49,502 nucleotides of DNA from Nemertoderma westbladi (lineage: Eukaryota; Animalia; Xenacoelomorpha). The notes below the pieces were generated by a model. That model was not told where the DNA came from. It saw only the letters and a list, made by a program, of their open reading frames with translations, and did not search any database. The stretch is from the NCBI GenBank assembly GCA_032718475.1, contig JAUCBJ010005889.1, positions 1-49,502 of the forward strand. The letters run 5' to 3'. The position numbers were made by a program, and so were the translations under genes. This document shows, piece by piece, positions 2,814-47,395 of the stretch. The number at the start of each line of letters is the position of its first letter. Position 1 is the stretch's first letter.

Positions 2814-2994
2814 GCAGGAAGGTGAGAGATTTATTTGATTGGATAATTGGTACCAGCACCGGAGCCTTCCTGGCCTTAGGGATTGTTTACAGTACGGATT
2901 GTTTACAGTTCCAGAATCTCTACTTTAACTTGAAGGATTCAGTTTTCCAAGGGAACCGTCCATACGATCCCAAGCCGTTACAGGATATAATTAA
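2814..2994 (+). CDS. PLA2G6: iPLA2-beta/PLA2G6-like phospholipase, internal exon with the catalytic serine motif GTSTG
   Basis: Acceptor ttttcag| and donor |gtgagt. Translates RKVRDLFDWIIGTSTGAFLALGIVYSTDCLQFQNLYFNLKDSVFQGNRPYDPKPLQDII(K), collinear with the iPLA2-beta segment DLFDWVAGTSTGGILAL...VFRGSRPY. Ends in phase 2. Not in the ORF track. Confidence 0.9.
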
Positions 2995-3607
2995 GTGAGT
3001 GAAACTTATATGGTACAATAGTGAGCCGAAGAGGTCTGCAGTCAATTGTCTAATATTAAACTTTTCCCGTAATTCACTTAAAAAACAATATCATTTTAAA
3101 TTATTTTGACATAACATACAACTTTACATTTATTTAAGGTGGGACCTCCTACTTGGGTAAAGAGGTCACATTTTTGTTTCATCTGAAGCAGAATTTAATA
3201 AGGATTTCAAATCTTTTAACGGCTTAACAACGTCTATTTTAGTTCTCGAGTTATCGCTGCCTATCAAAAGTCCGTCAAAATGTAAAAAGAAAGAAAGACA
3301 GACAGATCGACAGCCAAGATTCCACCTAACATTTTAAACACTGACGTCGGAAATTAAATCACAGACTAAGAAAACTTCCGTAATGAAATTTTAGCACGGT
3401 GGTCTGCAGCCTTACTACCAGAACTGCAGAACTGATTAACAGACCCCAGACAGACAGTATTGAGCGGGAAATTTCAAACTGTGAAGATATTTATACATTT
3501 ATTATAGGAAGGGATAAATGTATAATAATAATCACCACGAAAAACACAGCTTGCCAATACATTGATGCTATCAAGATAATTATGTAGGAATGACATTTTT
3601 GAAACTA

Positions 3608-5280
3608 CAAATAAATATACATTGTGTGTACTGTGTACACAATAAATAGGCATTGTGTGTACTGTGTACACAATAAATATAGGCATTGTGTGTACTGTGT
3701 ACACAATAAATAGGCATTGTGTGTACTGTGTACACAATAAATAGGCATTGTGTGTACTGTGTACACAATAAATATAGGCATTGTGTGTACTGTGTACACA
3801 ATAAATAGGCATTGTGTGTACTGTGTACACAATAAATAGGCATTGTGTGAACTGTGTACACAATAAATAGGCATTGTGTGCACTGTGTACACAATAAATA
3901 GGCATTGTGTGTACTGTGTACACAATAAATAGGCATTGTGTGTACTGTGTACACAATAAATAGGCATTGTGTGTACTGTGTACACAATAAATAGGCATTG
4001 TGTGTACTGTGTACACAATAAATAGGCATTGTGTGTACTGTGTACACAATAAATAGGCATTGTGTGTACTGTGTACACAATAAATAGGCATTGTGTGTAC
4101 TGTGTACACAATAAATAGGCATTGTGTGTACTGTGTACACAATAAATAGGCATTGTGTGTACTGTGTACACAATAAATAGGCATTGTGTGTACTGTGTAC
4201 ACAATAAATATAGGCATTGTTGTGTGTACTGTGTACACAATAAATAGGCATTGTGTGTACTGTGTACACAATAAATAGGCATTGTGTGTACTGTGTACAC
4301 AATAAATAGGCATTGTGTGTACTGTGTACACAATAAATAGGCATTGTGTGTACTGTGTACACAATAAATAGGCATTGTGTGTACTGTGTACACAATAAAT
4401 AGGCATTGTGTGTACTGTGTACACAATAAATAGGCATTGTGTGTACTGTGTACACAATAAATAGGCATTGTGTGTACTGTGTACACAATAAATAGGCATT
4501 GTGTGTACTGTGTACACAATAAATAGGCATTGTGTGTACTGTGTACACAATAAATAGGCATTGTGTGTACTGTGTACACAATAAATATAGGCATTGTGTG
4601 TACTGTGTACACAATAAATAGGCATTGTGTGTACTGTGCACACAATAGATACGCATTGTGTGTACTGTGTACACAATAAATATAGGCATTGTGTGTACTG
4701 TATACACAATAAATATAGGCATTGTGTGTACTGTGTACACAATAAATAGGCATTGTGTGTACTGTGTACTCAATAAATAGGCATTGTGTGTACTGTGTAC
4801 ACAATAAATAGGCATTGTGTGTACTGTGTACACAATAAATAGGCATTGTGTGTACTGTGTACACAATAAATAGGCATTGTGTGTACACAATAAATAGGCA
4901 TTGTGTGTACTGTGTACACAATAAATAGGCATTGTGTGTACTGTGTACACAATAAATAGGCATTGTGTGTACTGTGTACACAATAAATAGGCATTGTGTG
5001 TACTGTGTACACAATAAATATAGGCATTGTGTGTACTGTGTACACAATAAATAGGCATTGTGTGTACTCTGTACACAATAAATAGGCATTGTGTGTACTG
5101 TGTACACAATAAATAGGCATTGTGTGTACTGTGTACACAATAAATAGGCATTGTGTGTACTGTGTACACAATAAATAGGCATTGTGTGTACTGTGTACAC
5201 AATAAATAGGCATTGTGTGTACTGTGTACACAATAAATAGGCTTTGTGTGTACTGTGTACACAATAAATATAGGCATTGT
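3608..5280. repeat. 31-bp minisatellite (GGCATTGTGTGTACTGTGTACACAATAAATA)n, about 53 copies
   Basis: Directly visible tandem array. Variants include 33-bp units (extra TA) and one deleted unit near 4875. It explains the 31-aa periodic minus-strand ORFs. Confidence 0.97.
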
Positions 5281-5890
5281 AGTTGTTGCCGGATGGTAAT
5301 ATAAATAAATAAAGTGGGGTTGAGCTGTGAAAAGAACTGTAATAAGTATGAATGTTGAAAGCCGTGGTTCGAACCAAGGTTCAATACATTTTCTTAATGG
5401 AACAAGATACGGACTTTAAACGGTAACAGGTAGTGCGCATATCACATCATGAGTAATGTTGGTTCAAAAAATATTGTTGTTTTGGTTTACAGTTCTGGCT
5501 CAAGTAGCTTAATTTAATTAGCTTAAAACATAAACCAGTTTGACCTGTAAATAAACCATGAAAAACTAAAAATTATCGAAATCGATAGCTGCATTAAAAT
5601 AATAAGTTAATAATAACCGTTTTAACTTCGAAATATCTCGAGTAACATCAGAATTCGATTCACCGTTACAGGGTCATTACAATTATCTCCACAATCCGAC
5701 CCCCACAAACTCACTATATTTGATTATTGTTGTTATACCAATAAGTTAAATTTCTGCGAGCACCTCAGAAACTGAAAGAAGTTGGACTAAACGATGCAAC
5801 ATTGAAATTATTATTCAAACAAACTTTTGTATACCAGTATAGGGTAAAAAGCTATGCTGGAGTTTATGGAAGAAATCTTAAAGTATATAA

Positions 5891-7705
5891 CTAAAACATT
5901 TTGCGACAACCTCTAGGAGGAGGTGACGGTGATTTGGTAAGGAAGTCGGGTTTATCGTAACATCTGTTGCGTTTTCTTCGCAACTTCTTCCTCAACACCA
6001 TCAACCTGAGTAGGGCGAGGTCGTCGTCCGATGCGCTAGAACTGGCGGTGGCTTCGCGAGGGGGTTCAGCTACAGCGTGTTGGCTAGCAGACCCCACGGT
6101 ATCCATGCCGACTATCTCCTGCAGGTAGTCCAGCTGTGGGTCCGTGGGAACAGACGGATGGCCCCATCGGTTGTAGCCGTGGTTGAAGTGACTCATTGTG
6201 TTATTGGGGAGGATGTTGGAGAAGTTGTACTGGGGGGTGTCGCTGGCTCGGGTAGTCGGGAAGGTGGTTGGGTTGTAGTGGGAGGTGGAGGGTGCAGTGT
6301 GGGAGTAGGGACGTAGTGGTTGTGAGTAGGGAGGCACTGTGTGGGAGTAGGGAGGTACTGCTTGGGAGTAAGGGGGTGCTGGAAGGAATGATATTGCTTC
6401 CCACGTCCCTAATTCGTAGTTCCAATGGAACTGTTGAGTAATGCCGGATTGGTGAGGAACTGCGGATTGGTGAGGAACTGCGGATTGGTGTGGAACACCG
6501 GATTGGTGTGGAACACCGGATTGGTGTGGAACACCGGATTGATGTGGAACACCGGATTGGTGTGGAACACTAGATTGGTGTGGAACACCGGATTGGTGTG
6601 GAACACCGGATTGGTGTGGAACACCGGATTGGTGTGGAACACCGGATTGGTGTGGAACACCGGATTTCTGTGGAACACCGGATTGGAGGGGAATTCCGGG
6701 GTGATGGAGAGCGTTGGGTTGTGGCGGGTGGATGGACGCAGTTTGTCCGCCCCCTATGTCTGTGTGGTAGAAGTTGGTTATCCCGGAGTTACTGAACCCA
6801 GTGTGTGGGTGGTTAGTCTGGGGCAATCTCTCCGATGTCTGGTTGACCTCTGGAACCTCTGTCTGACTGTTTACCCCCCTCCCATGTGGCGCGGACTCTC
6901 TCCCAGGTGGCGCGGACCCACTTCCATGTGGCGCGGAACCACTCCCATGTGGCGCGGACTCTCTCCTCGCTGTTACACTCGTTATCCCCTTGCTGGCACT
7001 CAACCTAGCTGTGGCTGGAGTCCTCACGGAGGCTAGCGGGGTGGAGGAGACCAAATGGGCCCTCTTGGCTCCGCTCGTTTCCGCTATGCCTCGGATCTTG
7101 GTGAGGGCCTCTTCGGACCAGTCCCGTTGCTTCGGGAACAGACGGACCCCTTGCAGACCTTCCAACACGGTTTGGGACACCTCCGCTATGTTCGGCGACT
7201 CTGGGAGGGTGTCTGTCTCCGGTGTCACGCATCTAAGGGACTCCGTCTCCGACGAAATGTTAAAATTCGCCGGCATTAATGCGGACTTCAACCGGTATTC
7301 GGTTAACGGTGATAGCGGAGTGGCGCTTCGAGTTCTAGAATTCTCCTTATTGTGTTTCGGCGTAGATGTACCGCCATCGCCACGTCCCCTAGTCCGTTTG
7401 TAATTGGATGGGCCAGCATCCCCCGAGCCCACCTTGTGTTTGAATTCCCCCACCCGAATTATTCGCCGAATCTCTTCGCTAATTCCACGACATCCCGTCT
7501 CAGATATTTTACTTTTTCCGAACATCCCATATCCGTGGCTGATCCGTTTAGACGAACAGACTTCTGGTGAGAGTTTCTCTTTCTCTAGGCCGACCGGGAT
7601 TCGTTGTTTCTTTTTAGTTTCCCTAGAAACGGCAAATGCGCCGGTTCTTTTATGTTTAGATTCCATTTCGGTGTTTCTCGTTTTGATAACTTTCTTACGA
7701 TCCAT
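5891..7705 (-). CDS. Orphan 604-aa low-complexity protein with basic termini and (PHQSGV)n repeats
   Basis: ATG-initiated 1.8-kb ORF, more GC-rich than its flanks. Most of its length is non-repetitive, and its internal repeats (18 and 21 bp) preserve frame. No family recognised. Confidence 0.5.
   Translation of the reverse strand: MDRKKVIKTRNTEMESKHKRTGAFAVSRETKKKQRIPVGLEKEKLSPEVCSSKRISHGYGMFGKSKISETGCRGISEEIRRIIRVGEFKHKVGSGDAGPSNYKRTRGRGDGGTSTPKHNKENSRTRSATPLSPLTEYRLKSALMPANFNISSETESLRCVTPETDTLPESPNIAEVSQTVLEGLQGVRLFPKQRDWSEEALTKIRGIAETSGAKRAHLVSSTPLASVRTPATARLSASKGITSVTARRESAPHGSGSAPHGSGSAPPGRESAPHGRGVNSQTEVPEVNQTSERLPQTNHPHTGFSNSGITNFYHTDIGGGQTASIHPPQPNALHHPGIPLQSGVPQKSGVPHQSGVPHQSGVPHQSGVPHQSGVPHQSSVPHQSGVPHQSGVPHQSGVPHQSGVPHQSAVPHQSAVPHQSGITQQFHWNYELGTWEAISFLPAPPYSQAVPPYSHTVPPYSQPLRPYSHTAPSTSHYNPTTFPTTRASDTPQYNFSNILPNNTMSHFNHGYNRWGHPSVPTDPQLDYLQEIVGMDTVGSASQHAVAEPPREATASSSASDDDLALLRLMVLRKKLRRKRNRCYDKPDFLTKSPSPPPRGCRKMF
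6447..6686. repeat. 18-bp tandem repeat (GGATTGGTGTGGAACACC)n, about 13 copies, inside the orphan ORF
   Basis: Visible array encoding PHQSGV on the minus strand. Confidence 0.9.
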
Positions 7706-9639
7706 TATTATTCGACTATCCGGTATATAACTTACAAGTTAAACAACCTCAAATTAATTTTCTGGAGTAAAATGTCCAACGACTTTGTACCACATTTTAG
7801 ATACAAAACTGAAAGTAAGTCTCAAAACATTTCTGCCCAAAGGCATATCGGTAAGCGAGTGTGCTGTGCAGCTAAAGTTATGTTATTGGAACTTCGCCGA
7901 CACGAAATCAATGAACCTTAGCATAGAGTTTTACTATACCAGCTCGGTAATTTGGCATTGTTGTACGCCAAAGTGTGAACACTCAGGTAAACTTCAACCG
8001 TGTTTGTGAAGCCCCACTCCACTACGCACTGCACATTACACGTAACCAATTGCTAATTATCATCAAATTAGAATTGTTGCGTTGAGCCATACAGACAGAC
8101 AAAGGAATTACGTAATACAGTATTCCGATTTGGCCGTAGAGTATAAACTACATCCGATAAGGGCTTCCCCACAAACGCAGGGCCTTTAAGGGACTGAACC
8201 ACATTATTTTTTGGAGAAGATATTTTTTGGTGAATTCTTGGATTATGCCAAAGACGTAGTGATTAAATTTTACACTGCAAATTAACTTTGTATAGGTCTA
8301 CAAAACCAATAAGAATTTACAGTAGATTCATTCGTGGTGTTCCAGAACATTTTTTACTCACAATTGTTTGAACGGTTCCAATCTAAGTTTTGGCGATATT
8401 TACAGTACCCTGTACTTACTGTATGCTATGTGCCATCTTAGCGATGATGCCTAATGAAGATTCGTAACTTGTAGGATAGGCCTAAACCAACTTACCGGTA
8501 GTCTTAAAAATGAAATAATGAATTAAATTACATACTGCGAGCTGGTATATCATTTTATTGATCTCAATTTTATATTGCTTCCACAAATGGAGCACCTAGC
8601 TAGACCAAGCAATTGAACTTCACTTCAAATAATCTCCATTCTCCAGCAGAAACGTTGGTAAGGGGTTAAAAATGGAAAGGGGTAAAATAGGAAAGCGTAC
8701 CAGCAATCATGATGTACAGTAGGTTCTTAAATGAACCGTATCTAATTTGCAAGCAGTCAAATTCCGAAATCCCATCCCGGTATAGCATCGGACTGGTGGT
8801 AGGTAAAGCATAACTACAGTAACGGATTAAACTTTTCCACGTATGTGCGTACGTATCCACGTATCTACAGTATACATTACATTGAGCGATTTGACATACG
8901 CGTATGCATACGCGTTGGCGAATACTGTGTTCTGATTGGTCCAGATGATATCAAGGACTTCTAGAACATAGTATATATTCAGGACGCGATGCTCGCATTA
9001 ATTTTATTAGAGGCCGGTTTTTTTCTATTCAGTGTAGCCCTAATTTTTTTAATTTACAGAAGCATACTTTTCAATTTCTTTTCATTGTTTTTAATGTGAG
9101 ACTGTATTATGTATTGCTAACAACCTAAGGTACATTCTTTTAATGTAAATATTTTACGAAAATTTGCTAGCGATAATTTATTAGTATATACAAAATAACT
9201 GTTGAAAGATATTCGAAATAACCCTTGTAATAAGTTGTGTGAAATAACTGACTGTATCTACTACTGAAACCGAACTCCTAATATATTATACGAGTCACAA
9301 TAATTTTTCTTTTCGAAATATGTATAATCTGCACGGAGGAAGTTTTAATATGTTTATCCCAGAGTACAGTTAGACTTATTGTTGTTTACTGGAAATGTAC
9401 TGTTTATTTACTGAAAATAAACAATCTCTAAGTTCTGAAACATCAATGGACAGTTGTTCCTTGAAAGTGATATATCCGCATGCATAGTAGTAGTGGAACG
9501 GTTATACGGCCCGTCCAGCCTATACTTAATTCAATATACCCCTGTACTGTAATATATATACAGTAGGTGCTCAAAATCAATTTCTCTCGATACAAGGTTT
9601 TCAACAGACGAATATCCATTAATAAAATAGAAGGAAAAA

Positions 9640-10730: not shown

Positions 10731-10739
10731 TCGAAATCG

Positions 10740-11064: not shown

Positions 11065-13039
11065 CTAGCTAGTACGTACGTACATGATCTTTTAACTTGA
11101 TGAAACAAGTTCTAGAATAAAAAGTTAGATTAAAACCAAGGCGACCTAAACTATTTGATTTTCGTGAAATTTCCACTGTGTTTATGGGTGTCTATACCCA
11201 TAGTGTGTGTATCCATAAACGAATTTTTGCTACTTTTGTATTAAGTAATTTTCGTAATAATTTAAAAAATTTATTAAATTTTTTAAACTTTTTAAATAAT
11301 TTTGTTAAATTGAGAGCGAGGGAGCTACCAGGGCCCCACTATTAATGTGATTGCTTGAAAACTCAGTATTTTAATATGGTTTTATTCGACAATATTATAT
11401 TCTATGTTCTTCTCATTTTTAATCAGTCAGTGCTAGCGCCGTCCAACGCGTTTTTAATGCTATTTTATTTGTGCTAATTAAAATTAATAATTAAACCGCC
11501 GGTGGAATCCGGACATGAAATAAAATAAATTGTAGTATAATTTTCGCCAATAGTATTGCAACTGCATTTCTTTTATTTAGCTAGGCCTACAATGTATAAT
11601 TAAGAAACTAAGATAATAAAAACCGACCTCCATAAAAATTAACACTGTATGCGAGCATCGCGTCCTGAAATACAGTCCTGAATATATATACTATGTTCTA
11701 ATAGTCCTTGATGATACACGAGATAAATGTCATGCAAAATGCTTAGGCCGAGCAAAATGCTTGGGATCGGTACATACAGACATAGGCCTACAGTATAATA
11801 ATGCTAAAGAGCGGAAACAACTGGAAATACATTTTCGTAGCCGTGTACAGGTGTAGATACGATTTGAAATACTATTCCCGAAAAGGTAATGGAATCATGA
11901 CACGATCTATCAATGTGTTTAAAAATAAATTGAAAGAGTTGGATTTCTAGGAAATTATTACCGGTACAGTACTTTTGACAAATTTATGGTCTATGAGAAT
12001 TATTTTTCCTTGTGCGTACACTTTTATTTAAATTTTTCAGTTTGTTACATTGATATGCAGCGCAGCCCAGCATTCTACTGTATTTATCAAATCTGCCTTT
12101 TATAGTTGGCAAGTCCGAATTAAATTAAATTAATAACACCATGGTAGGCATAACACCATGACACCTACTGTAATTAAAGGCCTACAGCTACAGAGAAGCC
12201 GTAGACTTGACAATAATCTCTTATCTCATCTGGATCAATCATGAAACAGTATTCATCTTCGCGTATGCATACGCGTATGTCAAATCCAAATCGCTCAATG
12301 TATGTACAGTAGGCCTAATGTCTAGATACGTGGATACCAGGATACGTACGTACGCACATACGTGGATACGTTACGTACGACGTACGTCTGTACGTGGAAA
12401 CGTTTAACTCTACCAGTCTACAGTAGGCCTAACTGTATAGGTATATAGGCCCCTATACCGGTAGGTTCATCCGATTTTCCTTTTTAAAATATAGTAGTAG
12501 TCTCTGCAGTATGCACATAAGCTGCATTGAGAAGCCGGTAGCGGTACTGCACTTGAAACCAAATGTACCGGTATATTACAGTAATTTGATATTAAATACT
12601 GAAACAATATTTCGTCAGACTGGCCAGATTGCAGAAGTACCGGTAGGATTACATCGCAACAGTGCTTAAGTGATTTTTTAGTAGGCCTACGCCTTTATTG
12701 TAAAGAAAAAGTACCATGGTAAGTTTGGTTGGTTCCGTGTTCGTGGCGTACTGTAGCTACTCTTTTACTTGTGGGGTGAGACACGTCAGGGCAGAGCCTT
12801 TTTAGCAAATGAAAATTATAATTATTAAAGTAGAATACTAGTGACTAGCGGGGATTATGGCTGTTGAGGTGGGGTGTGTGTTTGTGTTCAATGATGTGAA
12901 AAAAATTCATTTGAATGATGTGTTTCAAAAAAACGTATGTGGGCGGAAGGGCAATCTTAAGTAATCTTACCGTAGGCCTAGTAGAAAAATTAGGGGGGGG
13001 GGGGGGGGGGGGGGGGGTCGTGTCATTGAATTACGACAC

Positions 13040-14540: not shown

Positions 14541-14998
<458 letters not shown>

Positions 14999-17295: not shown

Positions 17296-17333
17296 GGTAA
17301 AAGATAGACCTGGAAATACCATCTGATACCTTG

Positions 17334-19585: not shown

Positions 19586-19910
19586 TGGTGACGTTGGAGG
19601 GGGACATACAGAGCGGAGTGGAAGTGGTGACGTTGGAGGGGGACATACAGAGGGGAGTGGGAGTGGTGACGTTGGAGGGGGACATATTGAGGAGAGTGGG
19701 AGTGGTGACGTTGGAGGGGGACATACAGAGGGGAGTGGGAGTGGTGACGTTGGAGGGGGACATACAGAGGAGAGTGGGAGTGGTGACGTTTGAGGGGGGC
19801 ATACAGAGGGGAGTGGGAGTGGTGACGTTGGAGGGGGACATATTGAGGGGAGTGGTGACATTGGAGGGGGACATACTGAGGGGTTTGGGAGTGGTGACGT
19901 TGGAGGGGGG
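19586..19910. repeat. 39-bp G-rich minisatellite inside the Sola1 element, about 8 copies
   Basis: Unit GAGTGGTGACGTTGGAGGGGGACATACAGAGGGGAGTGG. Confidence 0.9.
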
Positions 19911-28701: not shown

Positions 28702-28862
28702 CAGCCCATGACTTTCTTGAGGACACTGGCCTTGAAGATGCGGATGATCTAGCAAATGTCATCGGTGATAGGGAGTTGTGGCGGCGCAATTTTGTCGACA
28801 AGCCGGCACAGCATTCTTAAAAATGCAGCAGCAATGCAGCATGCAGATTCTAGTAGTACACA
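28702..28862 (+). mobile_element. Short 3' end of the same RTE-like LINE
   Basis: Matches 13736-13905 with a small deletion. It has a TAG tail and a direct repeat GTACTGTAAAA on both sides (28691-28701, 28863-28873). Confidence 0.85.
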
Positions 28863-29993: not shown

Positions 29994-31601
<1,608 letters not shown>

Positions 31602-33468: not shown

Positions 33469-36400
33469 CTACACGTACCTCGGCGAATTAATCTGCGTTC
33501 TACCCCGACCCCCTGAGTATCCAGAGTAGCCTCCGCCCCCTTGGCGTTGTTGGTACCCCCCAGATCGGCCCCCTCTCTGCTGGTATCCCCCCCTCTGCTG
33601 GTATCCCATCACGCTGCCCCCTCCACCGCCGTACCGATCCCCCCTATTATACTGGCCCCCCGACCTGTACCCCCCTTGGTTTCCCCCTCCCCGCTCTCTT
33701 TGCCCCCCTCCGTACTGTCCCCCCTGTTGTTTGTCCCGCTGATAGAAATGCGTCCCCTGCCGCAGATGCCGCTGTTCCAACAACTTCTCGTTCTGCTCGA
33801 CTAGATTATTCACCTTCTCGCTGAGCTGCAGGGCGAGCTGTTGCAACCGAGTCGGCTCGGCTTTGTGAACCACGAGCGTTTGAGTCGGTTCGTCCCACGA
33901 GGCCTGGATGTCGTCGTTGATTATCATTTTACTGATTATCCTGTGGACAACTCCGGCGTCCAACTGAAACATCTCGCCGAGAAACTGCTGCGAGAAACTA
34001 TCGTAGAACTTCCCGTACGTAAACAGATACGTCCTCAACCCTTCTTCTTGAATCTTCCTCGTCAACATATCGCGAACTCTGTCAGCCCGCGGGAATAGAT
34101 CCCAAATCTTTTTGTTCATTTTCTCGTTGATAATAAAGTCCCGACAGCCCTTCCAGTCGCCTACTTTGAGCGCCTTCGACGCGGCTACTACGTGCTCCCG
34201 CATGTTCTCCGGTGGGCCCACTAACGTCTGCTTCTCGCTCAACTTCAACTGGTGATGGAAACTCTTCGAGATCATCCGCTTTCTGGCGTCGAATTCTCGC
34301 GCCGACATGTACGGAATCTCCAGCAACATTGCCGACGTCAGGTAAATACATTCTAGAACGTCCAGGTTGATATGGAGATGGAACGGCATCTGACGTTGTC
34401 TCTCCACCTGATAATACAAATATATCAAATTACATTTTTATTTCTTAAAAATTAAATGTTAAACATTAAATTTCAATATCCCGAAGCGGTTATATTTGAC
34501 TAGTAGCCACAGTATACTGATCGCTTAGGCCCACTCTCACAGGCACAGTTGCACCGATACTTTATGCAGCATGCAGGTTAGACTGTAAACTGAAACTAAG
34601 TGGTGGTCGACCCGTACCAGATGAACCGGTAGTGGGCCTAACTCATACGCTGTGTCCTATGACGCTACTGGAATCCAACTAGCCGTGAACAGTTATACAA
34701 TTATATGTCCTTCTCTACCTACAAAAGCAAGCAAAACACACACACCCACCCCGACTTACCTTTTCCTGCTTGGCGTCTCTCTCAGACTGCCTCTGCATGG
34801 CCAACCCTTGCGCCAAGAACACCTTGGCCTTCCCACTACTCTGTATGTCGAGTAAGGCGTTATGCGCCTCCTTTATGTTGCCATGACGGAAGGCGCACAA
34901 CCCCAGCTGCACCAGAGTCCGGTTGTACAGAATCTCGGTTGGGATGTCCGAGAACTGGATGTTGTCCTGCAGATGGGACATTAACATGAGGTCCCGCGCC
35001 TCGTACCACCGGTCGTGTACCGCGTGGTGGTAGATGTGGGCGAGAATGGCCCGAGTTCGAATCCTGTCGGTGGCGTCTTGCGAGTAGATATATTTGGCTA
35101 GTTGGTCTATAATGTCCTCGGCGCGGTCTTCAGCGTCTTCTTTGTCGTCTTTGTAATCGAACTTGTAGTAAAGCAGCTCGATGCGCTTCAGGTAAACACG
35201 ACAAAGGAGTTGGGGAGATGATTTATTCATCTCAAGATATTCCTGCGGGTGTAAATGTTTCATTAGACGTAATAGTTGTTGGAAACAACGATACTACATC
35301 AACACAACTACGAGGAAGAAACTAGCTGAATACAAAATAAAACATACTTTTATACACATCAATATTGTATTATTATACTTAGGAACTTGGTAATTTATAT
35401 TATCTAAAAAGTTCACGAAATCTCAATTTGATTTCTCATTATAACAAATCATGATAACATTATTATATTGCGCAATCCAACTGAATCTTTTGCAAATGTA
35501 AACCGATCATGATAACATTATTATATTGCGCAATCCAACTGAATCTTTTGCAAATGTAAACCGACCTGCAGTCGCTCGACTATCTTCACTACTTTGGGTT
35601 CGTCTTTAAGTCGGTCCACATACTCGGTAGAGTGAGCGTCGGCGTTCTGCAGTATCTTGGTGAACTCCTCGCTCATCTTCTCGACCAGACTCAGCGCGCA
35701 ACCTCGAACCAACAGCGGCCGTTCCGTCGACTCCTCCAGGTTCTCTTCGTCCTCCGCCACATCGGCTCCTACCTGCACCTCGGGGTGTTCCATCAACACG
35801 TCCAGTAACACGTTCAGGTAGCGGATACACTTGGACCACACGTCCGCCTTCATGCAGTCGGCGAGGTTGGGATTGTAGTCGAATACAGCCGATACCAGAC
35901 CTGTAAGGTGGAATCGTGGAGATAGATGGAATGTTGTAATAGCCACGAATCTAACAGCTATGTATTATCCTATCGGCAATGTCGTGGGATCGAACTAGTG
36001 TTCTTCATGTTGTAATTCTGAGGTTTTGACCATCTCAGTTAGCAGTACAGGCTAAATGTTGATCTGTAAACACCACATTATTCTGGGTGCGTTGTATACC
36101 AGCCATTATGCTCGCTCCCCCCTCAACTCTACTTCAAAAGACTTCCAAACTGGAGCTTTGCCAAGCTTTGCACAACGAAAATTTAAATGTTTAATTCATC
36201 CACAGCCACAATATTTTCGCTCACCACAAAATCAAAAATGATCACATTTGTGTTTGAAGGTTAATTTATGAGACTAAATTCAATAACCGGCTTCCTAATA
36301 TCTTAATGACGTTGTTTTGCAATAGGACGTCTGCATGTGCCGTTCCGTTTTAAATAAAATAATTCTGAACTGCGAAAATATTGAGTTCCAAAACTGGATC

Positions 36401-37562
36401 TTATCCAGTTGTCCTTACAAGGAACTGTTGGAAAACGTAAATTGTGTTTAATTTTGGAATATGTGAGTATTTATATTTGAATATGTTGGTAATGTTACGG
36501 CTCACCTAGTAATATCTTTATGGCGATCGCAGCACCAAGGGAGTGGCGGTACGATAGATCCAGGAGTTCGTTGAGTAAACTAATCTGCTCCCTTCGATCG
36601 GTCCCCCTCTTCCCGCGCGCAGCCACGATCTCAACCATCTTCTTGGCGACGTTCTCCACGTTAATCTCCACGTCCTTATCGAATAGAACCGTGACCACAC
36701 CGCCGACGCGACCCTTAACTTCGCTCCAACTCTCATCTTCTTCGTCGTCTGCATCGCGTCGCTTCACCCGCTGGACTCGCTCGCGTTTACGCGACTTCTC
36801 CGATTTGTCGCCCGGCGCTTTCTTTAGGAAATAGGCGGCGGTGAGCTGCTCCAGGTCGCCCTCAACGTCCGACAAACTCGAACTGGAGTCGCTCTCCGCG
36901 CCCCAGTCCATGTCGGAGTCGCTGTCCTCATCCATAGCCTCCCGCGACGGTTTCCCTCTGCTTTTCTCCTCCGAACGAACTTCCACTTTATCTTCGCTGA
37001 TCTCCGATTCCAGGTTGGACGCATCGTCATCCACATCCTCTTCCTCTTCATCCGACGGATTCTCCCGGTAGACGATTAAATCCTCCTCGAATTCTTTGTT
37101 ATAGCGCTTTAGTTTCTGTCTCAATGAACCCAAACACCTCGCGTTTATTTTGCTCAGTTTCTTGCGGTAATCCGTGTCCGCCCAGCATTCGTTAACTAAA
37201 CTTTCAGTTTCATCCAAACAACGCAAGTAGAATTTGGGAACAACTCCGTTCTTATCAACTACCGCCTTCGATTTACTGTATACTTTCCCTAATTCTTCAA
37301 ACGTATCGAGAGCCGATTTAAAATCGCGAATCTTTCTTTGGTTGCGAAGATTCTTTATCAAGGTATTGAGTTCGTCGTAACGTTTATCGAAAGCGCTCTT
37401 GAGTATTCGCTTGGGTTCTATGTCGTCATCGTCGGCCATGTGGAAACCTTTACTGGTGAAGGTGGCCTTGGTGGGAACGAGGGCCGGACCCTCATCCTCC
37501 TCGCTAAAAGAGTTGTCCGACTCGCTATCGGACCCTCCGATGGCGAAAAATCGAGACGACAT
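33469..37562 (-). CDS. EIF3C: Eukaryotic translation initiation factor 3 subunit C; exons complement(36506-37562, 35566-35900, 34760-35242, 33469-34407), 937 aa
   Basis: [15 protein letters not shown] start, [43 protein letters not shown] and a PCI domain. Three GT-AG introns have matching phases (1, 0, 0). The joined length of 2814 nt is an intact frame. Confidence 0.95.
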
Positions 37563-38874
37563 TGTTTGGTTTGCTCTTTAGTTTCCTCAGTTTGTAGTTA
37601 CCGTGTACCGGTACGACGTGGCACGTGGTTGTTACTGGAGTTCAGATGTACTATGTAGTACTAGGCCTAAGTCCTGTTAATGCTGTACTGTGATATGGAC
37701 GTCCGATTTATAATAGACTAGAGGCTACAAGGAAGGACTGAAGGACATACAGTCAGAAAGTTACCTATCTCAGTCTGAGTCTGAGTCTAATCTCCATCAG
37801 TCCGTGTAGCAGAACTGTTAGTAGCACTGTAGGGTGAGTGAGTGGACAAGTGGACTTGACTTTTTAGGGGAAACTTGATTTTTTTTAAATAAATGAAAAA
37901 CGATTGTAAATTATTTCACAATACCACACAATAATGTTCAAAATACTTGTAGGCTGTTACACCCGCGCTGGCCGCGCAATAATGTTGTATTACCTTTTGG
38001 TTATTTTTTGTTTTATTGCCAATAAACGTTTTCTGGGTTCAAACGTAAATTTTTACCCTTTTTACTGTTTTAAAACGAATGAAAATTCGCACCCTTATTT
38101 TATGTCAACTGTCATATATTGATTTCCAGTTTTGTTTCAGCCGTTTTCAAATTGATCAATAGATTCATATACTTAGAGAACCATTACACCAGGGAACTCC
38201 AACTTAGGTGATTGACACTTACACAGACCAAACCCTCAATGGAACGGGAATACAATGGAGAAAGTAAAGGCACTTTTCTTTAACATTACCTTCCCTGCCT
38301 GCTTTATGTAGTAGCCGTAGCCCATCTATTAGAAGCCAAGCCAAATCAACCAACACTTTCTTCCCTCTTTGCAACTGTGCTTAGCATATAATACCGACAT
38401 CTGGGTCATTGACAGTTTAAAGTAAATGCCTCTGCCTCAGATGGCGGCATACATCAATTGAATTACAGGAAAATAATTAAAATGCTCCTGGATTGAAAAT
38501 TATACATGATATTTATTATGAAAAAGTGCCTTACCGCGTTAAAGTTTATTGCTGTTTCAATGAATGATATATTAATTATTTCGTCGTTGTTAGGAGAACC
38601 CAATTGAAAGACCACTTAAATTGGTATAAAATTTGGGTCAATAATTTGACAAATTAATAATCGCATTTGTTTCCCTTTTTCCCTGCTCTATTATAAAATA
38701 GACATGTTGAACATAGTTTTGATATTGATAATTTGAATGATAGTTTTGTTATTATACATAACAGTATTATAGGAACTGTTCTAGGGGTCGGGTCTTAACC
38801 TCAAATGATAAGTTAATTTGCCGATAATATATTTTAATATACATTAAATATTGTAATGATTTATTGTTTTGCAG

Positions 38875-39031
38875 ATCTGAGTTTGGGAACAAGAAGATGT
38901 CTTCTGTGACTCACCCCAAAGTGATGGTGACGGCCTGTCTGTGCGACAGGGTTCCCGCTCAATTACATCTTTTCCGTAACTTTAAGACGGCTGCTCGGAC
39001 CCGGCCATTCGCTTCCCAAGCAGCATTTCTG
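38875..39031 (+). CDS. PLA2G6: iPLA2-beta-like exon (SEFG...PKVMVTACLCDRVPAQLHLFRNF...)
   Basis: Acceptor ttttgcag|. Matches iPLA2-beta [23 protein letters not shown]. The best in-phase donor is the non-canonical GC site CTG|gcaagt. Confidence 0.88.
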
Positions 39032-39302
39032 GCAAGTAGCCTAATACTGTATATATATTTAATATTTCTACTTCAGTCGAAAGACGTCTTTTTGGAAGTT
39101 TCTAGGAAACATACTACTGGGAAAGAAATGGGGCGACTTAACAAATGGAATACGAATACCGTACACTACCGTTGAAGTATTCAACGTTCTTGAACCCTAT
39201 TTCCGAAAAATAATTCGCATATTTGAGCATCCTTCAATTGTGTTATAAATGATTAATAATTAATTAACTTTATATTTCGTACAATTTCATAATAATTAAT
39301 TA

Positions 39303-42300
39303 ACTCATAGTGGACCCAGTGGTCACAAGTCCTAGATAGACCATATTCTGTTTCGTAGGAAATACAGGAGCTCTATACAAGACTGTAGACGTAATGCATT
39401 TACACTTCGACCCTTCTCCAGTGATCACCGCTTCATTGTGGCCTAGGTAAGACTTAGTCAGCGTGCTAGCAAAACAACGAAATCTGCCTTGCCGCGGCAT
39501 GACTGGTCCTCTATTATGCAACAGCCAAGTGTGAGATCCAGCTTCACACTACAGCTGAGCAACAGGTATGAGGTTCTTGCCTCTGAGGCAGCAGATAACT
39601 GCGAGGGCTATACTGCCTTCACAGAAGCGGTTAAGCTAGCAGATGCAGAAACAGTTCCTGTATACCCACGAAACAGGAAAAGGCCCCCTGGACTGACCAC
39701 AAAATTCAGAAGTGCCGAAACGAACTCTATAAGGCGCAGAAAGAGTCCCGACTCAAACAGACTACAGCGCACAAGAATGCAGTTAAGGTTGCATCTAGGT
39801 CCCTGAACGAACAGGCAGTACTCTGTTAATCTACAGGAGCTAATATTTCAATTCAACGTTAAACTGGTCAAGCCGGCACATTAATAGTAAATGGGTCGGG
39901 CCATGATGTCGAATATACACAATAATTAAATAAAATAGCAACAGTAACAAACCATCACCAAAATCAATGACAAATAGTCAATAGTGACTAAGGTAGGCGC
40001 CAAGGATACCAGTGTAGGTCGGATCACGTGTAGTGTTATTCGAGCGTAGTGGTAGTGATGATTTGTGGTATGATAGCTGTGTGTCTCATGGGATGTTGTA
40101 AAATTCCAGAATTCGTTTCCTCCTAACGTCAAGGGACTTCGATTGGTGACTCAGGCAACTGGCGACAAACATACCGTTGAACTGGTCCGTAAGTGTCGGT
40201 TGGCAAATGTTTATGCTCGAGCAGAGGGCGCGGGGGTCATAAGCAAATACCATGATCGAGTACCACTTGGGCAATTCAAAGGTACGAGTGGCTTGGTGGT
40301 AGCCACCGAGCAAACCTGCATGGGGACCAACCTTGTTATCGTAGTTGTGTTGTGAGGAGAGGCGGAAGGCCAGTTGCAATGGAGTGTGTGCCCATACACT
40401 GTCTGATTGCAGTGACAGACATCGTTAGACAGCCGGATATATGATACAGGGTCGAGTTACTTATATATAATCCAAGGTGAAGGAGACCGCGTAGAGTCTT
40501 CCGGTAGTAGGCCTCTAGTTTATCGGTGTATGTTCCTGTTAGTCTCCCTATGTCAAGTTTGAGTCGGTACAGCACAACTGGGACAGCCAGGGTTCTCCAG
40601 AGCATGAATACTACGTCAGGATGCAGCCATTGTTGCGCCAGAATTTGTATGGAGTCTGCTAGTACACTGGAGTGTGGTGAGAGTTTATACCCTAAGAAAA
40701 TCAAGTGATTGCTGCTCGGTATTAGATATCCGTTAATGTTGATGAAGCGTGGTAGGTGTGCCGAGCCCCGTCTCATCATGATCCATTTTGTTTTGGATAG
40801 TTCTAGTTTCATGTCGACTTTCAACGCTTCAGCTTTGGTTATGTCTGCCATGTTCTCAATGTCTTTAGGGGTGGTCGCTAGCAGAATGAAGTCATCAGCA
40901 TATGCGAAAGCCCCCAACCAAATCGAGTCTACCCAGCAGCCAAGCTGCGAGTTCTTTAGGGCTTTGATCATGTCCATGGTGTACAGGTTAAAGAGGGTCG
41001 GAGATAGTAGCGATCCCTGTTTAATTCCTTTGTGTAGGCCTACTGAGATTGGTGTACAGTCTATGTTCGAGCCGAACTTGAGGAAGAATTTGCTTGAGAG
41101 GTAGTAGGACAGTATGGTCCTGACGATATGGGGATTCACGTACTCAAGGAGCTTCTTAGTCAGTAGTGCGTAGTCAACATCGTCAAACGCCGATTGTATG
41201 TCTATTTGGCAGGCGAACAAAGGGGAACCGTTAGATAGGTGATACTCGATACACTCTAGGATTGTGCTGACGACGATGTCCGCGCCAATATTCTTCTTAT
41301 GGGCAGTCTGGTATTCATGGGGTAGGACTGGATCCAGGAAGTGTACTAGGAGGATGTGTTCGAATATTTTTGCAAATATGGTAATCGATGCGATCGGACG
41401 ATACGAAGTAGGTTTTAGTTTGTCCCAGTCAGTTCAGAAGTTCGAAGCTCAGTTCGAAGCAGTTGTTGATGATGTTGGCTAGAATGTCACAAGTGGATTC
41501 AGGTTCCAAGTGGAGTAGATGTTCAAGAGTGAGGGATGCAGCGTCTGGGGCTTTGCCAGTTGAGAGACTCCGAATATCTTTCTTCACAGCCAGCGGAGAT
41601 ATTGTGGGAGTTTTATATGTTTACATTTGTCTGCAAGCTCTTTCTGAATTTGTTCGATGCCGCTCTTATTCAGATCACCTGAAAATTTGTCATTGTAGTG
41701 TTCTCTTAATGTAGCTTGCATGCTGGTCCAAACCAACAGGTTGATGCCATCAATGATGCTGACGACAGCAGGCAATCATCCCTGGCATGGAAATCAATCA
41801 ACTTGCTTACTCGGCGGAAAAGCCAACCAACCACCAAGGTTAAGGCAGAATCACCAGCCGATCGCCTCAATGGTTGGAAGGCCCACTTTGAATAGTTCCT
41901 CAATATTGACAGGGTATTGTCCGATAACTTTATAGAAGTAAAGGTGTCTGAGTCTGTACTCCCAGATATTTCCATTGCCGATATCTCCTTTGCAAAAGTG
42001 AAGGATGCTGCAAAGAGCATTAAGACCAATCGTGCCAGTGGAGTATATGGTGTTCCCCCTGAGGTCTTTATAAATTACAAAAGTGTTTAAAGCTCATCTA
42101 TCCCATCATAGTAGACATGTACAGAACAACAAGAGTCCCACAAGAAATGAAAACAAATAAGTTGGGGCCAGTTCCCAAGAAGGGCAACTAACTCCCTATG
42201 CCTAACACTCTATGGTTCTTTTCGGGGAATCTCATTGATCTTGATTGCTGCAAAGCTATACAATAGAATTCTATTAAATCGCATCAGGTATCCCATTGAG

Positions 42301-43468
42301 AGACTGCTCCGTGGAAATCAGAATGGGTTCCGTAAAGGTCGTTGGACCATGGAGCCAATTTTGGCACTTAGAAGGGTAATTGAAGAGTTATCAAAAAAGA
42401 AAGACAGGCATCTGGCTGTTATCTTTGTTGACTTCTTCAAGGCCTTTGATTCAGTCTCTCGCTTACGTATGTTCAGCATACTTTCATTATATGGGATTCC
42501 TGAAGAAATTATTGCAGCAATCAGATCAATATACGATGGTTCGACAACATTTGTGTCTACTGTTGATGGTGACAGAACCATTTGAAGTGTTATGGGGAGT
42601 CCTCCAAGGAGACACACTTGCGCCATTCGTGTTCATAATTGTGGTTGACTATGTTCTACGCATGTCCTTAGATCATCATAATGATGATGGGGTGATGATA
42701 ACTCCATCTACTGGCTCCAGAAGTCGAGGAAATCCTGCCAACTACCTAACTGATCTCGACTTTGCTGATGATTTAGGAGTACTCTCAGAATCACTAGAGG
42801 GAGCCCAACGGCTCCTCAGCTCATTAGAACAGGCTGCTTCTAGTTTTGGTCTTTTTATTAACTCCAAAAGGACCAAAATTTCGAATACGTAAGGGAAAGG
42901 CATGGGCAGCCTTGAATAGGCTTTCCAGGATTTGGAAGTCACACAGAATTAATCGTCCGGTTATAAATAAAGTTAACTTAAGGTCCGATTATTTCGAGCA
43001 GCAATAGTTCCAGTACTCCTCTATGGGAGTCCATGCAGGGCTCTAACTGCTGAGGACACCAAATCTCTGGATGCCACATTCACAAGAATGCTACGCCGGG
43101 TTCATTGTGTCAAGTACAATGCACACATCTCCAACCAGACACTATATAACATTGGATGTGTCTCATTGGTTCCCCAAAGCTTGATACTAGAACAAAGTCG
43201 CCTCCGCTTTGCAGGACATTGCTTTCGCCGTGAGGACCAGCCAGTGCATAATCTTGTGCTTTGGCAGCCTCATGGAGTGAATAAGCATGGTGGACACCCC
43301 ACGACTTTCTTGAGACGCATGTTAAGGGACATTGGCCTTGAAAATGCGGATGAACTAGCAAATGTCATGGGCGATAGGGAGTTGTGGCGGCGCAATTTTG
43401 ACGACAAGCCGGCACAGCATTCTTAAAAATGCAGCTGCAATGCAGCATGCCGATCCTAGTAGTAGTAG
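39303..43468 (+). mobile_element. Long decayed RTE-like LINE, interrupted by a second LINE
   Basis: APE endonuclease end (IDHIL...SDHR) at about 39335-39430. RT motifs QNGFRKGR, FVDFFKAFDS, GVLQGDTLAP and LDFADD. (TAG)n tail at 43457-43468. Multiple stops and frameshifts. Confidence 0.88.
39845..41711 (-). mobile_element. L2/CR1-group LINE fragment inserted antisense within the RTE-like LINE
   Basis: RT motifs DIQSAFD, GIKQGSLLSPTLFNLY, YADD and upstream LSTGKAPD. TTGAA-type tail near 39846-39860. RTE coding sequence resumes at about 41712. Confidence 0.82.
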
Positions 43469-43495
43469 CGTTTAAGTACCTGTGCTATTTCACAG

Positions 43496-43712
43496 CCTAC
43501 ATATGATCCAGATGAGCAAGAGGTCTGGTCTGCCGGTATGGCATCGGGGGCCGCGCCAACTTACTTCCCGCCAATGGGCCGTTTCCTTGACGGCGGTCTG
43601 CTAGCAAACAACCCGACGATGGACGCCCTCACCGAGATTCACGACCACTACAAGGAACTCCGTTGCCGAGGTGACACCCAATCGCCACGGTTGGGTCTAG
43701 TGCTAAGTATTG
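43496..43712 (+). CDS. PLA2G6: iPLA2-beta-like exon with the catalytic aspartate motif DGG
   Basis: Acceptor ttcacag|, translation PTYDPDEQEVWSAGMASGAAPTYFPPMGRFLDGGLLANNPTMDALTEIH...LVLSI, donor |gtgagt (phase 1). Confidence 0.93.
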
Positions 43713-44110
43713 GTGAGTAATGCAGTATATGTGGATATACCGCGCTATATTATTAATACTCAATTGTCTGTCTCCGTATGTGGTCAAACCGATAATGAAA
43801 TCCCTTCAGGTTGTATCTGACTTACTCGAGTCAGTATAGCGGACGGATGGAAATTGTAATGAATTTAATGAAACTACTGCACTTATCTCGGCGAAAACTA
43901 ACCTCATGTAATGCAAAGGAAGCGCCAGCCAGACAATAGTTTTTTTCTCCGTTTTATCCTTCCTTCGGTGCTTCTAGGATTGGTAAAATAGTCTAAAATT
44001 ACTAAAGTTTCTAATATATTCAGTTTGTATGATTGGATACTATTAATTGTCAAAGTTGATGAAATTATAATGTGCGACGTAATTTAATTTTACGACCTAC
44101 TCTAGAGGTA

Positions 44111-46060
44111 GATGTGCGGATCTAGGACACTTCCCCCCCGGACAGTTCCCCCCTGACACATCCCCCCTGACACTTCCCCCCTGACACTTCCCCCCTGACA
44201 CTTCCCCCCTGACACTTCCCCCCTGACACTTCCCCCCTGACACTTCCCCCCTGACACTTCCCCCCTGACACTTCCCCCCTGACACTTCCCCCCTGACACT
44301 TCCCCCCTGACACTTCCCCCCTGACACTTCCCCCCTGACACTTCCCCCCTGACACTTCCCCCCTGACACTTCCCCCTGACACTTCCCCCCTGACACTTCC
44401 CCCCTGACACTTCCACCCTGACACTTCCCCCCTGACACTTCCCCCCTGACACTTCCCCCCTGACACTTCCCCCCTGACACTTCCCCCCTGACACTTCCCC
44501 CCCGCCCAAGTAGGACACTTCCCCCCTGACACTTCCCCCCTGACACTTCCCCCTGACACTTCCCCCCTGACACTTCCCCCCTGACACTTCCCCCCCGCCC
44601 AAGTAGGACACTTCCCCCCTGACACTTCCCCCCTGACACTTCCCCCCTGACACTTCCCCCCTGACACTTCCCCCTGACACTTCCCCCCTGACACTTCCCC
44701 CTGACACTTCCCCCCTGACACTTCCCCCCTGACACTTCCACCCTGACACTTCCCCCCTGACACTTCCCCCCTGACACTTCCCCCCTGACACTTCCCCCCT
44801 GACACTTCCCCCCTGACACTTCCCCACTGACACTTCCCCCCTGACACTTCCCCCTGACACTTCCCCCCTGACACTTCCCCCCTGACACTTCCACCCTGAC
44901 ACTTCCCCCCTGACACTTCCCCCCTGACACTTCCCCCCTGACACTTCCCCCCTGACACTTCCCCCTGACACTTCCCCCCTGACACTTCCCCCCTGACACT
45001 TCCCCCCTGACACTTCCCCCCTGACACTTCCCCCCTGACACTTCCACCCTGACACTTCCCCCCTGACACTTCCCCCCTGACACTTCCCCCCTGACACTTC
45101 CCCCCTGACACTTCCACCCTGACACTTCCCCCCTGACACTTCCCCCCTGACACTTCCCCCCTGACACTTCCCCCTGACACTTCCCCCCTGACACTTCCCC
45201 CCTGACACTTCCCCCCTGACACTTCCCCCCTGACACTTCCCCCCTGACACTTCCCCCCTGACACTTCCACCCTGACACTTCCCCCCTGACACTTCCCCCC
45301 TGACACTTCCCCCCTGACACTTCCCCCTGACACTTCCCCCCTGACACTTCCCCCCTGACACTTCCCCCCCGCCCAAGTAGGACACTTCCCCCCTGACACT
45401 TCCCCCCTGACACTTCCCCCCTGACACTTCCCCCCCTGACACTTCCCCCCCTGACACTTCCCCCCTGACACTTCCCCCCCGCCCAAGTAGGACACTTCCC
45501 CTCCCCCCAGGAAATTTAATTAATTTATCAATATGTAATGCTGAACACAGAATACATGTCGACGCATGTCGATTTTACCCTGGAGAGGTATAATTTTGAT
45601 TGCAACAATAATATTCATCCCCATCTGCTACAACTTGAAGAAGACTATTACATAATAATACCTATAATTAAAACAATTTATTATTATAATTCTATAGTTA
45701 ATAAAAACAGTATATCTTTCGGGGGATGGAATTTATAGGTCATCTAATTAATTGTTTAAAGATTAGCAAACAATACGATGTAATTGCATTGATAAAATCA
45801 ATAAATAAAACTTGGATACAAAATGTAAAATCGGGATGCAAAAGATCACTTTCTGAGCTAAGAAAGGAAAATTGTTTACAACTTGTCTGGATACAAGCGG
45901 TCCGTTTAACATACAAAATGAAAAATAAGAATGTGCGAAGTTAAGAACAGTCGGGGGGGAAGTGTCCGGGGGGGGGGGGGTGTCTGGGGGGAAGTGTCCG
46001 GGGGGTAAGTGTCCTACTTGAACGGGGGGTAACTGTCCGGAAGGAAGAGTCCGCACACCG
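44111..46060. mobile_element. Non-autonomous TIR element with a greatly expanded subterminal repeat
   Basis: The left array units GACACTTCCCCCCT and CAAGTAGGACACTT reappear inverted at 45951-46060 (AAGTGTCCGGGGGG, AAGTGTCCTACTTG). No clear TSD. Confidence 0.6.
44125..45510. repeat. 14-bp C-rich minisatellite (GACACTTCCCCCCT)n, roughly 95-100 copies
   Basis: Directly visible. It gives 14-aa periodic artefact ORFs in all three minus frames. Confidence 0.97.
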
Positions 46061-46202: not shown

Positions 46203-46416
46203 GGACTGGACGTATGCCGACGGAGAGACTTTGTACTCCCAACATCACAATGCCCTCATCTATGATCGATATATTTGCGGGGACCATGGGGCTGGTTACC
46301 AGCGCCAAGGATCTTACCAAGATACTTACTGAAGCGATGACCGATTCTGAAGGTCGTGTTGTCGAGAGATCTAGGGCGTGGTGTGATTCTATGCAAGTTC
46401 CTTATTTCCGGTTGAG
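46203..46416 (+). CDS. PLA2G6: iPLA2-beta-like exon (GTGRMP...DSEGRVVERSRAWCDSMQVPYFRL)
   Basis: Acceptor ctccacag| in phase 1. Matches iPLA2-beta GTGRSP...[22 protein letters not shown]. Donor AG|gtcagt in phase 2. Confidence 0.92.
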
Positions 46417-46490
46417 GTCAGTCAGTCAGTCAGTCAGTCAGTCAGTCAGTCAGTCAGTCAGTCAGTCAGTCAGTCAGTCAGTCAGTCAGT
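46417..46490. repeat. (GTCA)n microsatellite beginning at the splice donor
   Basis: Directly visible, about 18 units. Confidence 0.95.
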
Positions 46491-47223
46491 ATTTAACTAA
46501 CCTTCTTCATGCTCAGTCTAAGTATTAGTATCAGAGTTAAAGGTTAGCTGATCAACCCAGATGATTAGATGACATTTTTAATCCTACTACCGTAACTGCT
46601 TTACTGATTGATATAAGTTTCTTATGGGAAGAAAGTAATCTTAATTTAGCGATGCTACTGAATTATAAATGTATTGAAAACCGAATTTTTTTAAATTAAT
46701 ATTTATTTTTACCTGAGTGCTTGGATGCTTGTTTTTAAATTATCTTTCTTTGGCGGTCCAGTTCACCGTGTTATCCATCCAGTTCGGTTTACTTCGGCCC
46801 AGTTCGCACTATGTAATGGTATTGTTACATGTTGTATGCATTTTTAAAACTAAACCCTTTAAATTATACAGATCCCACTTAATCCCGTCAAAATTGTCAG
46901 TCCTTTAAATATATATATCGCTTTTATTACTTGGAATTGCTGCCACCCAATGGAATAATATCGAGTAAGTGTTCTGGAACACACACCCACCAAATATTGA
47001 AACTTATTAGAATTGCATATAAAGTCAATATGTCGCATAATTTGTTGACTTTTGTGAAAATCCCCAATGATGCTAACTGGGTATCCCCGCATAATAATTC
47101 TTAACATTAACACACATGCACTCGCACTCACATGCAAGCTCCAACGCAATATTTGTCGACTATAAAGTTTTCGCATTCGTTATGATTATGAATTATAACT
47201 AAAGATACATTTTTTTGTTGCAG

Positions 47224-47395
47224 CCCAATTATGTCAACTGATGTCCCATTGAACACATCAGATAATGAAACTTTGCTGCGTATGATATGGGAAACGCAAG
47301 TCTACCTCCATCAACACAGAGAACAATTAGTTATCCTAGCTGATCTTCTGTGTGACAGAAACCCAAAGAATTTTACTACAGTTGTTACAGTGTAG
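47224..47395 (+). CDS. PLA2G6: iPLA2-beta-like terminal exon
   Basis: Acceptor ttgcag| in phase 2. Translates SPIMSTDVPLNTSDNETLLRMIWETQVYLHQHREQL...TTVVTV*, matching ...LWETEVYIYEHREEF. AATAAA at 47549-47554. Not in the ORF track. Confidence 0.9.

Follow-up and report, generated by a model that had tools for sequence, protein, structure and literature searches.

A stretch of 49,502 nt from Nemertoderma westbladi (assembly GCA_032718475.1, contig JAUCBJ010005889.1, positions 1 to 49,502 of the forward strand), hereafter the window, carries on its plus strand five exons of a phospholipase gene, termed exons A, B, C, D, and the last exon. Judged by the sequence of its catalytic domain and C-terminus, this host gene is group VIA calcium-independent phospholipase A2 (iPLA2-beta, PLA2G6). 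Between exons A and B lie six open reading frames (ORFs), including those for Nup88, a RAB5IF-like protein, AMPK-alpha, and eIF3c, while a cathepsin D-like gene occupies the intron that precedes exon A. It was confirmed that the iPLA2-beta mRNA joins the exon at 2814-2994 to the exon that begins at 38875, which in the assembly stand on either side of the gene cluster.

The exon structure of the host was obtained by comparison of fish iPLA2-beta with the window by tblastn, which returned five pieces with E < 1e-4, each of them single, on the plus strand, and following the order of the protein. The first two are residues 451-512 at 2810-2995 and residues 510-566 at 38867-39028; residues 561-641, 639-707, and 708-750 come further downstream. 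When joined, the five exons give 312 codons with a single stop at the end. The joined product is 47% identical to fish iPLA2-beta residues 453-750. Against three vertebrate iPLA2-beta proteins, out of 120 listed, its identity is 47-48% over 302-304 columns. Among the best 120 of 514 matches, those with names are chiefly 85/88 kDa iPLA2 or phospholipase A2. The sole PDB match of exons A and B is 6AUN, an iPLA2-beta structure, and since the residues matched by the two exons follow one another (Table 1), the two halves of iPLA2-beta abut. The intron between exons A and B is of phase 2 with canonical GT-AG borders, and the alignment to both fish iPLA2-beta and 6AUN is collinear and gap-free at the junction. 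The four coding introns of the host measure 35,880 nt (GT-AG), 4,464 nt (GC-AG), 2,490 nt, and 807 nt (both GT-AG). In a six-frame motif search of the window, GTSTG was found once on the plus strand (2849) and DGGL once (43589); neither this search nor tblastn revealed a second GTSTG exon near 38875. The original prediction had described two exons 35,880 nt apart that join in phase, five stop-free exons, an intact catalytic Ser (GTSTG) and Asp (DGG), and a lone GTSTG exon, all of which agree with these results; each exon piece occurs once within the window. AATAAA at 47549-47560 lies beside the inferred 3' end of the gene at 47590. Comparison of exon A with longer proteins gave 16 candidates, none of them significant, and the full-length protein of this organism was not found among them.

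Eight read runs were considered, five of which match part of the query, and none is recorded as RNA. Their contigs were aligned over 1-3600 and 24110-44100 of the window, with four runs represented on exon A. Within 24110-44100 the contigs of runs X1, X2, and X3 are unspliced and those of X4 are spliced. Three features led us to treat X4 as RNA: splicing of its contigs at canonical sites, poly(A) at 2154, and gaps in cover at 121-600, 2161-2520, and 3001-3600. One X4 contig is 1,651 nt long (minus strand, depth 241.6); 38875-39030 occupies its positions 800-955 and 43495-43713 its positions 581-799. A contig of matching length, depth, and strand has 2808-2994 at positions 956-1142 with zero differences. 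As the two alignments agree in length, depth, strand, and adjacent coordinates, they are taken to show the same X4 contig, which would hold exons A, B, and C. The loose end of this contig behind 2994 is identical to the first 30 nt at 38875 (38875-38904), and the 580 nt that remain downstream would be accounted for exactly by exon D together with a last exon whose end is at 47590. Across the four runs on exon A the spliced junction appears only in X4; X1 and X3 continue unspliced, and X5 has no cover there. This contig, which carries the 2994-to-38875 splice, supports the central claim of the original prediction, namely that one iPLA2-beta gene spans the multi-gene cluster. An origin of the exons from different paralogues was rejected, since one contig holds A, B, and C. 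The GC-AG borders of the intron between exons B and C (39032-43495) are likewise confirmed by an X4 joint, at 39030/43495.

Table 1. Features of the window, in order of position (CDS, coding sequence; UTR, untranslated region; aa, amino acids; X4, the RNA-like read run).
Feature	Position	Strand	Evidence and remarks
Cathepsin D-like aspartic protease, unbroken CDS, 391 aa	612-1787	+ (host strand)	Pfam Asp, E 2.6e-123
iPLA2-beta exon A	2814-2994	+	Catalytic GTSTG; AG before, GTGAGT after; 6AUN 455-509, E 2e-14; X4 contig 956-1142
Giant intron	2995-38874	+	35,880 nt, GT-AG, phase 2; X4 loose end and splice sites
31-bp satellite, ~54 copies	3606-5280	AATAAA on host sense strand	53 AATAAA; ~0.6 kb behind giant-intron donor
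Orphan ORF, 604 aa, low-complexity repeats, putative gene	5891-7705	-	No Pfam
Diverged inverted repeats	8830-8978 and 11618-12372		Flank degenerate ORFs (9.7-10.7 kb); possibly an ancient transposon
Toxin-like ORF, 336 aa, intact, predicted lectin-plus-aerolysin/ETX_MTX2-like	15172-16182	-	Atlas features
Broken ORFs and 39-bp tandem array	19311-20586		Weak DUF7869 match, E 0.002; perhaps a decayed transposon
Nup88, unbroken CDS, 698 aa	23438-25534	-	Pfam profile 4-701 of 702; X4 contigs 24110-24839, 24861-26286
RAB5IF-like (EMC6 family), unbroken CDS, 123 aa	25897-26268	-	Pfam EMC6; X4 contig
Near-perfect palindrome, 930 nt	27466-28397		High copy in DNA runs; likely a miniature inverted-repeat transposable element or fold-back element
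AMPK-alpha catalytic subunit, unbroken CDS, 534 aa	29997-31601	+ (host strand)	Pfam Pkinase, AMPK_alpha_AID, AdenylateSensor; X4 contig 29799-31195
eIF3c, 937 aa, four coding exons (37562-36506, 35900-35566, 35242-34760, 34407-33469)	33469-37562	-	Pfam eIF-3c_N, PCI; spliced 3,173-nt X4 contig
iPLA2-beta exon B	38875-39031	+	6AUN 513-550; X4 contig 800-955, joint 39030/43495
Long interspersed nuclear element (LINE) fragments in intron B-C	39032-43495	Opposite strands	Two reverse-transcriptase fragments; RVT_1 matches
iPLA2-beta exon C	43496-43712	+	Catalytic DGG; 63% to fish iPLA2-beta; X4 contig 581-799
14-bp C-rich satellite, ~98 copies	44126-45479		Intron C-D
Short inverted G-rich partner of the 14-bp satellite	45952-46014		Intron C-D
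iPLA2-beta exon D	46203-46416	+	tblastn to fish residues 639-707; splice sites
iPLA2-beta last exon and 3' UTR	47224-47590	+	Stop 47395; tblastn 708-750; end inferred from the length of the 1,651-nt contig

All six nested ORFs fall within 5891-37562, the eIF3c contig extends to 37728 and is still inside the intron, and nested coding sequence makes up ~27% of the intron. Five of the six ORFs are antisense to the host, with AMPK-alpha alone in sense orientation. Nup88, RAB5IF, AMPK-alpha, and eIF3c, the last in spliced form, all lie under X4 contigs that show few differences and extend into the UTRs. This indicates that these copies are transcribed in the sample in which the host is transcribed, a statement about the sample rather than about cells. 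In the inventory given by the original prediction, Nup88, AMPK-alpha, and eIF3c with its three introns were recovered, all three genes by Pfam; the eIF3c introns are coding introns of 605, 323, and 352 nt in the best-scoring exon set among 15 compatible with the length of the contig. For the protein at 25897-26268 Pfam gives the EMC6 family only, and the name RAB5IF, given in that prediction, is assumed here. Among 7,996 scored candidates, no relative of Nup88 exceeds 34% identity, those of Saccoglossus and Littorina being the best, so that no close relative is present in the set. The toxin-like ORF at 15172-16182 has no Pfam match; its Atlas feature score to an LSLa-like cluster is 0.94, a PDB toxin match is weak (E 0.09), and its structure model, with a pLDDT (predicted local distance difference test) of 29.6, is too poor to be used. 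For the orphan ORF there was neither a Pfam match nor a usable Atlas match, and the best stretch in its 119 phmmer matches lies almost always in the repeat region. A further 106 ORFs of at least 52 aa in the window gave 0 Pfam matches, and Rfam gave 0 matches.

Two X4 contigs within the cluster display additional features at their ends. The RAB5IF-like gene lies 362 nt upstream of the Nup88 ATG, and the X4 contig 24861-26286 starts 18 nt before the RAB5IF ATG, directly after an AG, crosses the 362-nt spacer, in which neither AATAAA nor ATTAAA occurs, and enters Nup88. This contig might reflect a dicistronic mRNA, UTRs that overlap, or a spliced leader; the sharing of a contig is in itself no proof of one transcript. 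The eIF3c contig has 23 unplaced letters at its 5' end beside a pyrimidine-rich AG (37724-37770), which could reflect a 40-nt 5' UTR intron, a spliced leader, or an adapter. Besides its genes, the giant intron contains a satellite, the palindromic element, and LINE fragments. In the intron between exons B and C, one LINE fragment has apparently been inserted, at 39844-41730, into a high-copy element.

The intron that precedes exon A repeats the pattern. Cathepsin D is polyadenylated near 2154, as seen from an X4 poly(A) loose end, and its 3' end shares with exon A an X1 DNA contig that is free of differences over 1730-3600. The X4 iPLA2 contig possesses 509 nt upstream of 2808, and only 2808-2994 of it aligns within 1-3600. 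For a 24-nt piece of the upstream loose end, the window offers no site with fewer than 8 mismatches, and no upstream iPLA2 exon was found in the window by tblastn. As the upstream iPLA2 sequence is absent from the window, the previous exon lies before it and cathepsin D is located inside the preceding intron. The 5' exons of iPLA2-beta, which would encode the N-terminal ankyrin repeats and the glycine-rich nucleotide motif, lie before the window. Two successive iPLA2 introns thus carry genes, and the nesting of cathepsin D had not been described in the original prediction. An opposite-strand joint from position 1 to 611 is present in X1 and X3; a second, near-identical cathepsin D probably starts ~67 nt before the window, in the same upstream intron and head-to-head with the first, with ~680 nt from ATG to ATG.

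With regard to how the intron is handled, we consider it likely that there is one iPLA2-beta gene from which the 35.9 kb, with the transcribed Nup88, RAB5IF, AMPK-alpha, and eIF3c, are removed as a single cis-spliced intron. The host polymerase would run through the whole gene cluster, with the nested genes presumably using their own promoters and poly(A) sites. The antisense orientation of five of the six nested ORFs would hide their signals from the host pre-mRNA, and because AMPK-alpha, the sole sense gene, is without coding introns, it would offer few decoy splice sites. Both sense genes, AMPK-alpha and cathepsin D, have an unbroken CDS, and the only spliced nested gene, eIF3c, is antisense. 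By analogy, this pattern of orientation and introns resembles the avoidance of missplicing reported in Drosophila, where same-strand nested genes are mostly single-exon, 72.5% vs 37.4% (PMC3814207). The intron holds 104 AATAAA on the host strand, including 53 in the satellite. U1 telescripting, an established safeguard (PMC5499120), may keep the poly(A) site of AMPK-alpha and the AATAAA of the satellite from being used in host transcripts. Several points weigh against this reading. Outside the satellite, AATAAA is not depleted on the host strand (51 vs 50 on the other strand). Active nested transcription terminates the host at mouse H13/Mcts2, as reported in PMC13309782; since nested transcription can act in this manner, read-through past four active core genes would be costly and some loss of host transcript is to be expected. 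The junction is seen in a single contig of a single run, its halves matched across two alignments. The listed X1 contigs, aligned over 1-3600 and 24110-44100, cover 12,482 of the 35,880 intron bases (35%); none of them bridges 26717-28814 or 37956-38505, and none spans the intron. No relatives were found for a conservation analysis, comparison of eIF3c exon 1 with metagenome contigs giving 113 pattern matches and 0 relatives, and the account of origin presented below is one that we infer.

The same satellite and the same active genes can be read differently. In intragenic trans-splicing similar to that of mod(mdg4), the 5' half of the host would end near the satellite, exons B to the last would be transcribed from a promoter divergent to eIF3c, and the cluster would remain untranscribed by the host. 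The 53 sense-strand AATAAA, which begin ~0.6 kb behind exon A, are consistent with such an arrangement, as are the 5' end of eIF3c (contig to 37728), placed head-to-head and ~1.15 kb from exon B, and the absence of any interference with four active genes. A precedent is Drosophila mod(mdg4), which joins exons of independent promoters (PMC6237743, PMC12692577). The exons here follow one another in order along a single strand and show ordinary GT-AG sites, for which cis-splicing suffices; X4 has no cover over 3001-3600 and a depth of only 7.9 in the repeat-containing bin 38117-38783, contigs being blind to unstable precursors. Trans-splicing within a gene is rare in animals, and we regard it as unlikely at this locus. 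Equally doubtful is the wider proposal that the iPLA2-beta halves are separate transcription units bypassing the cluster, that obligatory trans-splicing restores the catalytic domain, and that intron-poor housekeeping blocks are interleaved with split genes throughout this genome. Recursive splicing, an alternative raised in the original prediction, would remove the intron stepwise through internal AG-GT ratchet points, and the length of the intron would suit it, since the window's other six coding introns, of 323-4,464 nt, are ~8 to 110 times shorter. This alternative gained no support, as 0 matches to YYNYAG-GTRAG were found on the plus strand (minus-strand control 0) and the two AGGTRAG sites (16970, 20354) have no pyrimidine tract; it appears very improbable.

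An assembly artefact, by which the cluster would be partly or wholly misplaced between the exons through repeat misjoins, would leave a true intron that is shorter or holds fewer genes. No independent contig was seen to span the intron and 65% of it falls outside the listed X1 contigs; a 1.7-kb satellite, the 930-nt palindromic element (27466-28397), and RTE-like 3' ends inside it provide repeats at which joins could go wrong; X1, moreover, may be the source sample and would then not be independent. X1 DNA contigs tile the stretch from AMPK through eIF3c to exon B with gaps of 42-550 nt, namely 42-97 nt in the AMPK-eIF3c stretch and 550 nt before exon B, in addition to 2,098 nt from RAB5IF to AMPK. 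For consecutive exons to stay in order on one strand, an artefact would require two misjoins. The window contains no N, the resolved 54-copy and 98-copy arrays suggest a long-read assembly, and no repeat common to both ends of the giant intron was found. Cathepsin D stands next to exon A in a single DNA contig. The depth is level between eIF3c exon 1 and exon B (29 vs 27.6 in X1, 20.7 vs 24.6 in X2), which argues weakly in the same direction. There is, in our judgement, little probability that the cluster is misplaced.

Concerning origin, the intron-poor, gene-dense block appears to have come into the iPLA2 intron by rearrangement, not by six separate retropositions. A block origin is favoured by the 362-nt spacing of RAB5IF and Nup88, the convergent arrangement of AMPK and eIF3c, the introns kept by eIF3c, and two 3' ends without an A-tract, no genomic A-tract being found after the 3' end of cathepsin D or of eIF3c, the two ends checked. 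Serial retroposition as the main origin was rejected, on weak grounds, for the last two of these reasons. In vertebrates, the genes for AMPK-alpha, Nup88, RAB5IF, and cathepsin D are each interrupted by several introns, and the absence of introns from the CDS of all four here points to intron turnover in the lineage. The position of the host intron also seems to be lineage-specific. Relative to human PLA2G6, the 36-kb intron lies at about human codon 565, presumably inside a human exon, and appears to have no human counterpart. Codon 531 is taken to be Ser477 of 6AUN, with an assumed offset of 54 that agrees with the fish alignment. Arg759 in the paper that places a human intron after c.1591 (PMC12593947) agrees with the same offset. 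That intron site (codon 531) falls inside exon A, which runs through it unbroken. Exon A additionally contains, at 2880-2909, an exact 14-nt direct repeat of period 16 that the DNA and the X4 contig have in common; a repeat of 14 nt arose in 0 of 300 shuffles. Its first copy terminates at the codon of the human intron after c.1591 with the protein length unchanged, and the repeat is possibly the scar of an intron loss.

The unusual feature of the locus is the presence of four or more conserved core genes in one intron that splits a catalytic domain; multi-gene nesting itself is known. Under nested-gene theory, constitutive nested transcription should hinder the host and be selected against, leaving nested genes that are young and tissue-specific. 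Here, one intron in the middle of the catalytic domain is occupied by four core genes, all of them represented in the RNA-like run that also contains the spliced host. The locus therefore represents a natural test of how a host polymerase passes active genes and ~100 sense AATAAA, and of cis- versus trans-splicing. Gene predictors that bar nesting would fragment such hosts, and the fragments can mimic gene loss in little-studied animals.

In the literature consulted, no account of this locus or of a core-housekeeping block in one intron was encountered, although gene-list supplements could hold such cases. The rarity assigned to the arrangement by the original prediction holds for the nesting of core housekeeping genes and not for multi-gene hosts, which are documented with up to 13 genes per host in Drosophila (PMC5174743) and four in one host in the ctenophore Hormiphora californensis (PMC8527503). 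As at this locus, several genes share one host in Drosophila, ~71% of nested genes are antisense, and those on the same strand are mostly single-exon (PMC5174743, PMC3814207). The Drosophila nested genes are described as young, fast-evolving, narrowly expressed, and often testis-biased, with the host as the broad partner, whereas the genes nested here are conserved core genes of translation initiation, the nuclear pore, and energy sensing. Nested genes of flies and mammals tend in general to be short, young, and tissue-specific (PMC3814207, PMC11694760). In mammals they lie in the largest intron and interference with the host is expected (PMC11694760, PMC8467205, PMC13309782), with 95% of hosts holding at most three or four nested genes (PMC11694760). 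Hormiphora has 2,357 nested genes in 1,654 hosts, and its common parallel nested genes and four-gene host resemble the present case (PMC8527503), as do the 2,432 nested genes of the glass sponge Aphrocallistes vastus, an animal that also has many single-exon genes (PMC10282587). Nested genes in these two animals are often transposon-flanked, and no block of core housekeeping genes in one intron was encountered in these reports, whose gene-list supplements may hold such cases (PMC8527503, PMC10282587). Double nesting is not seen at this locus. Relative to iPLA2-beta itself (PLA2G6, 6AUN), the patatin domain is collinear, with GTSTG and DGG intact and 47-48% identity over ~300 residues, and the intron map differs from that of the human gene.

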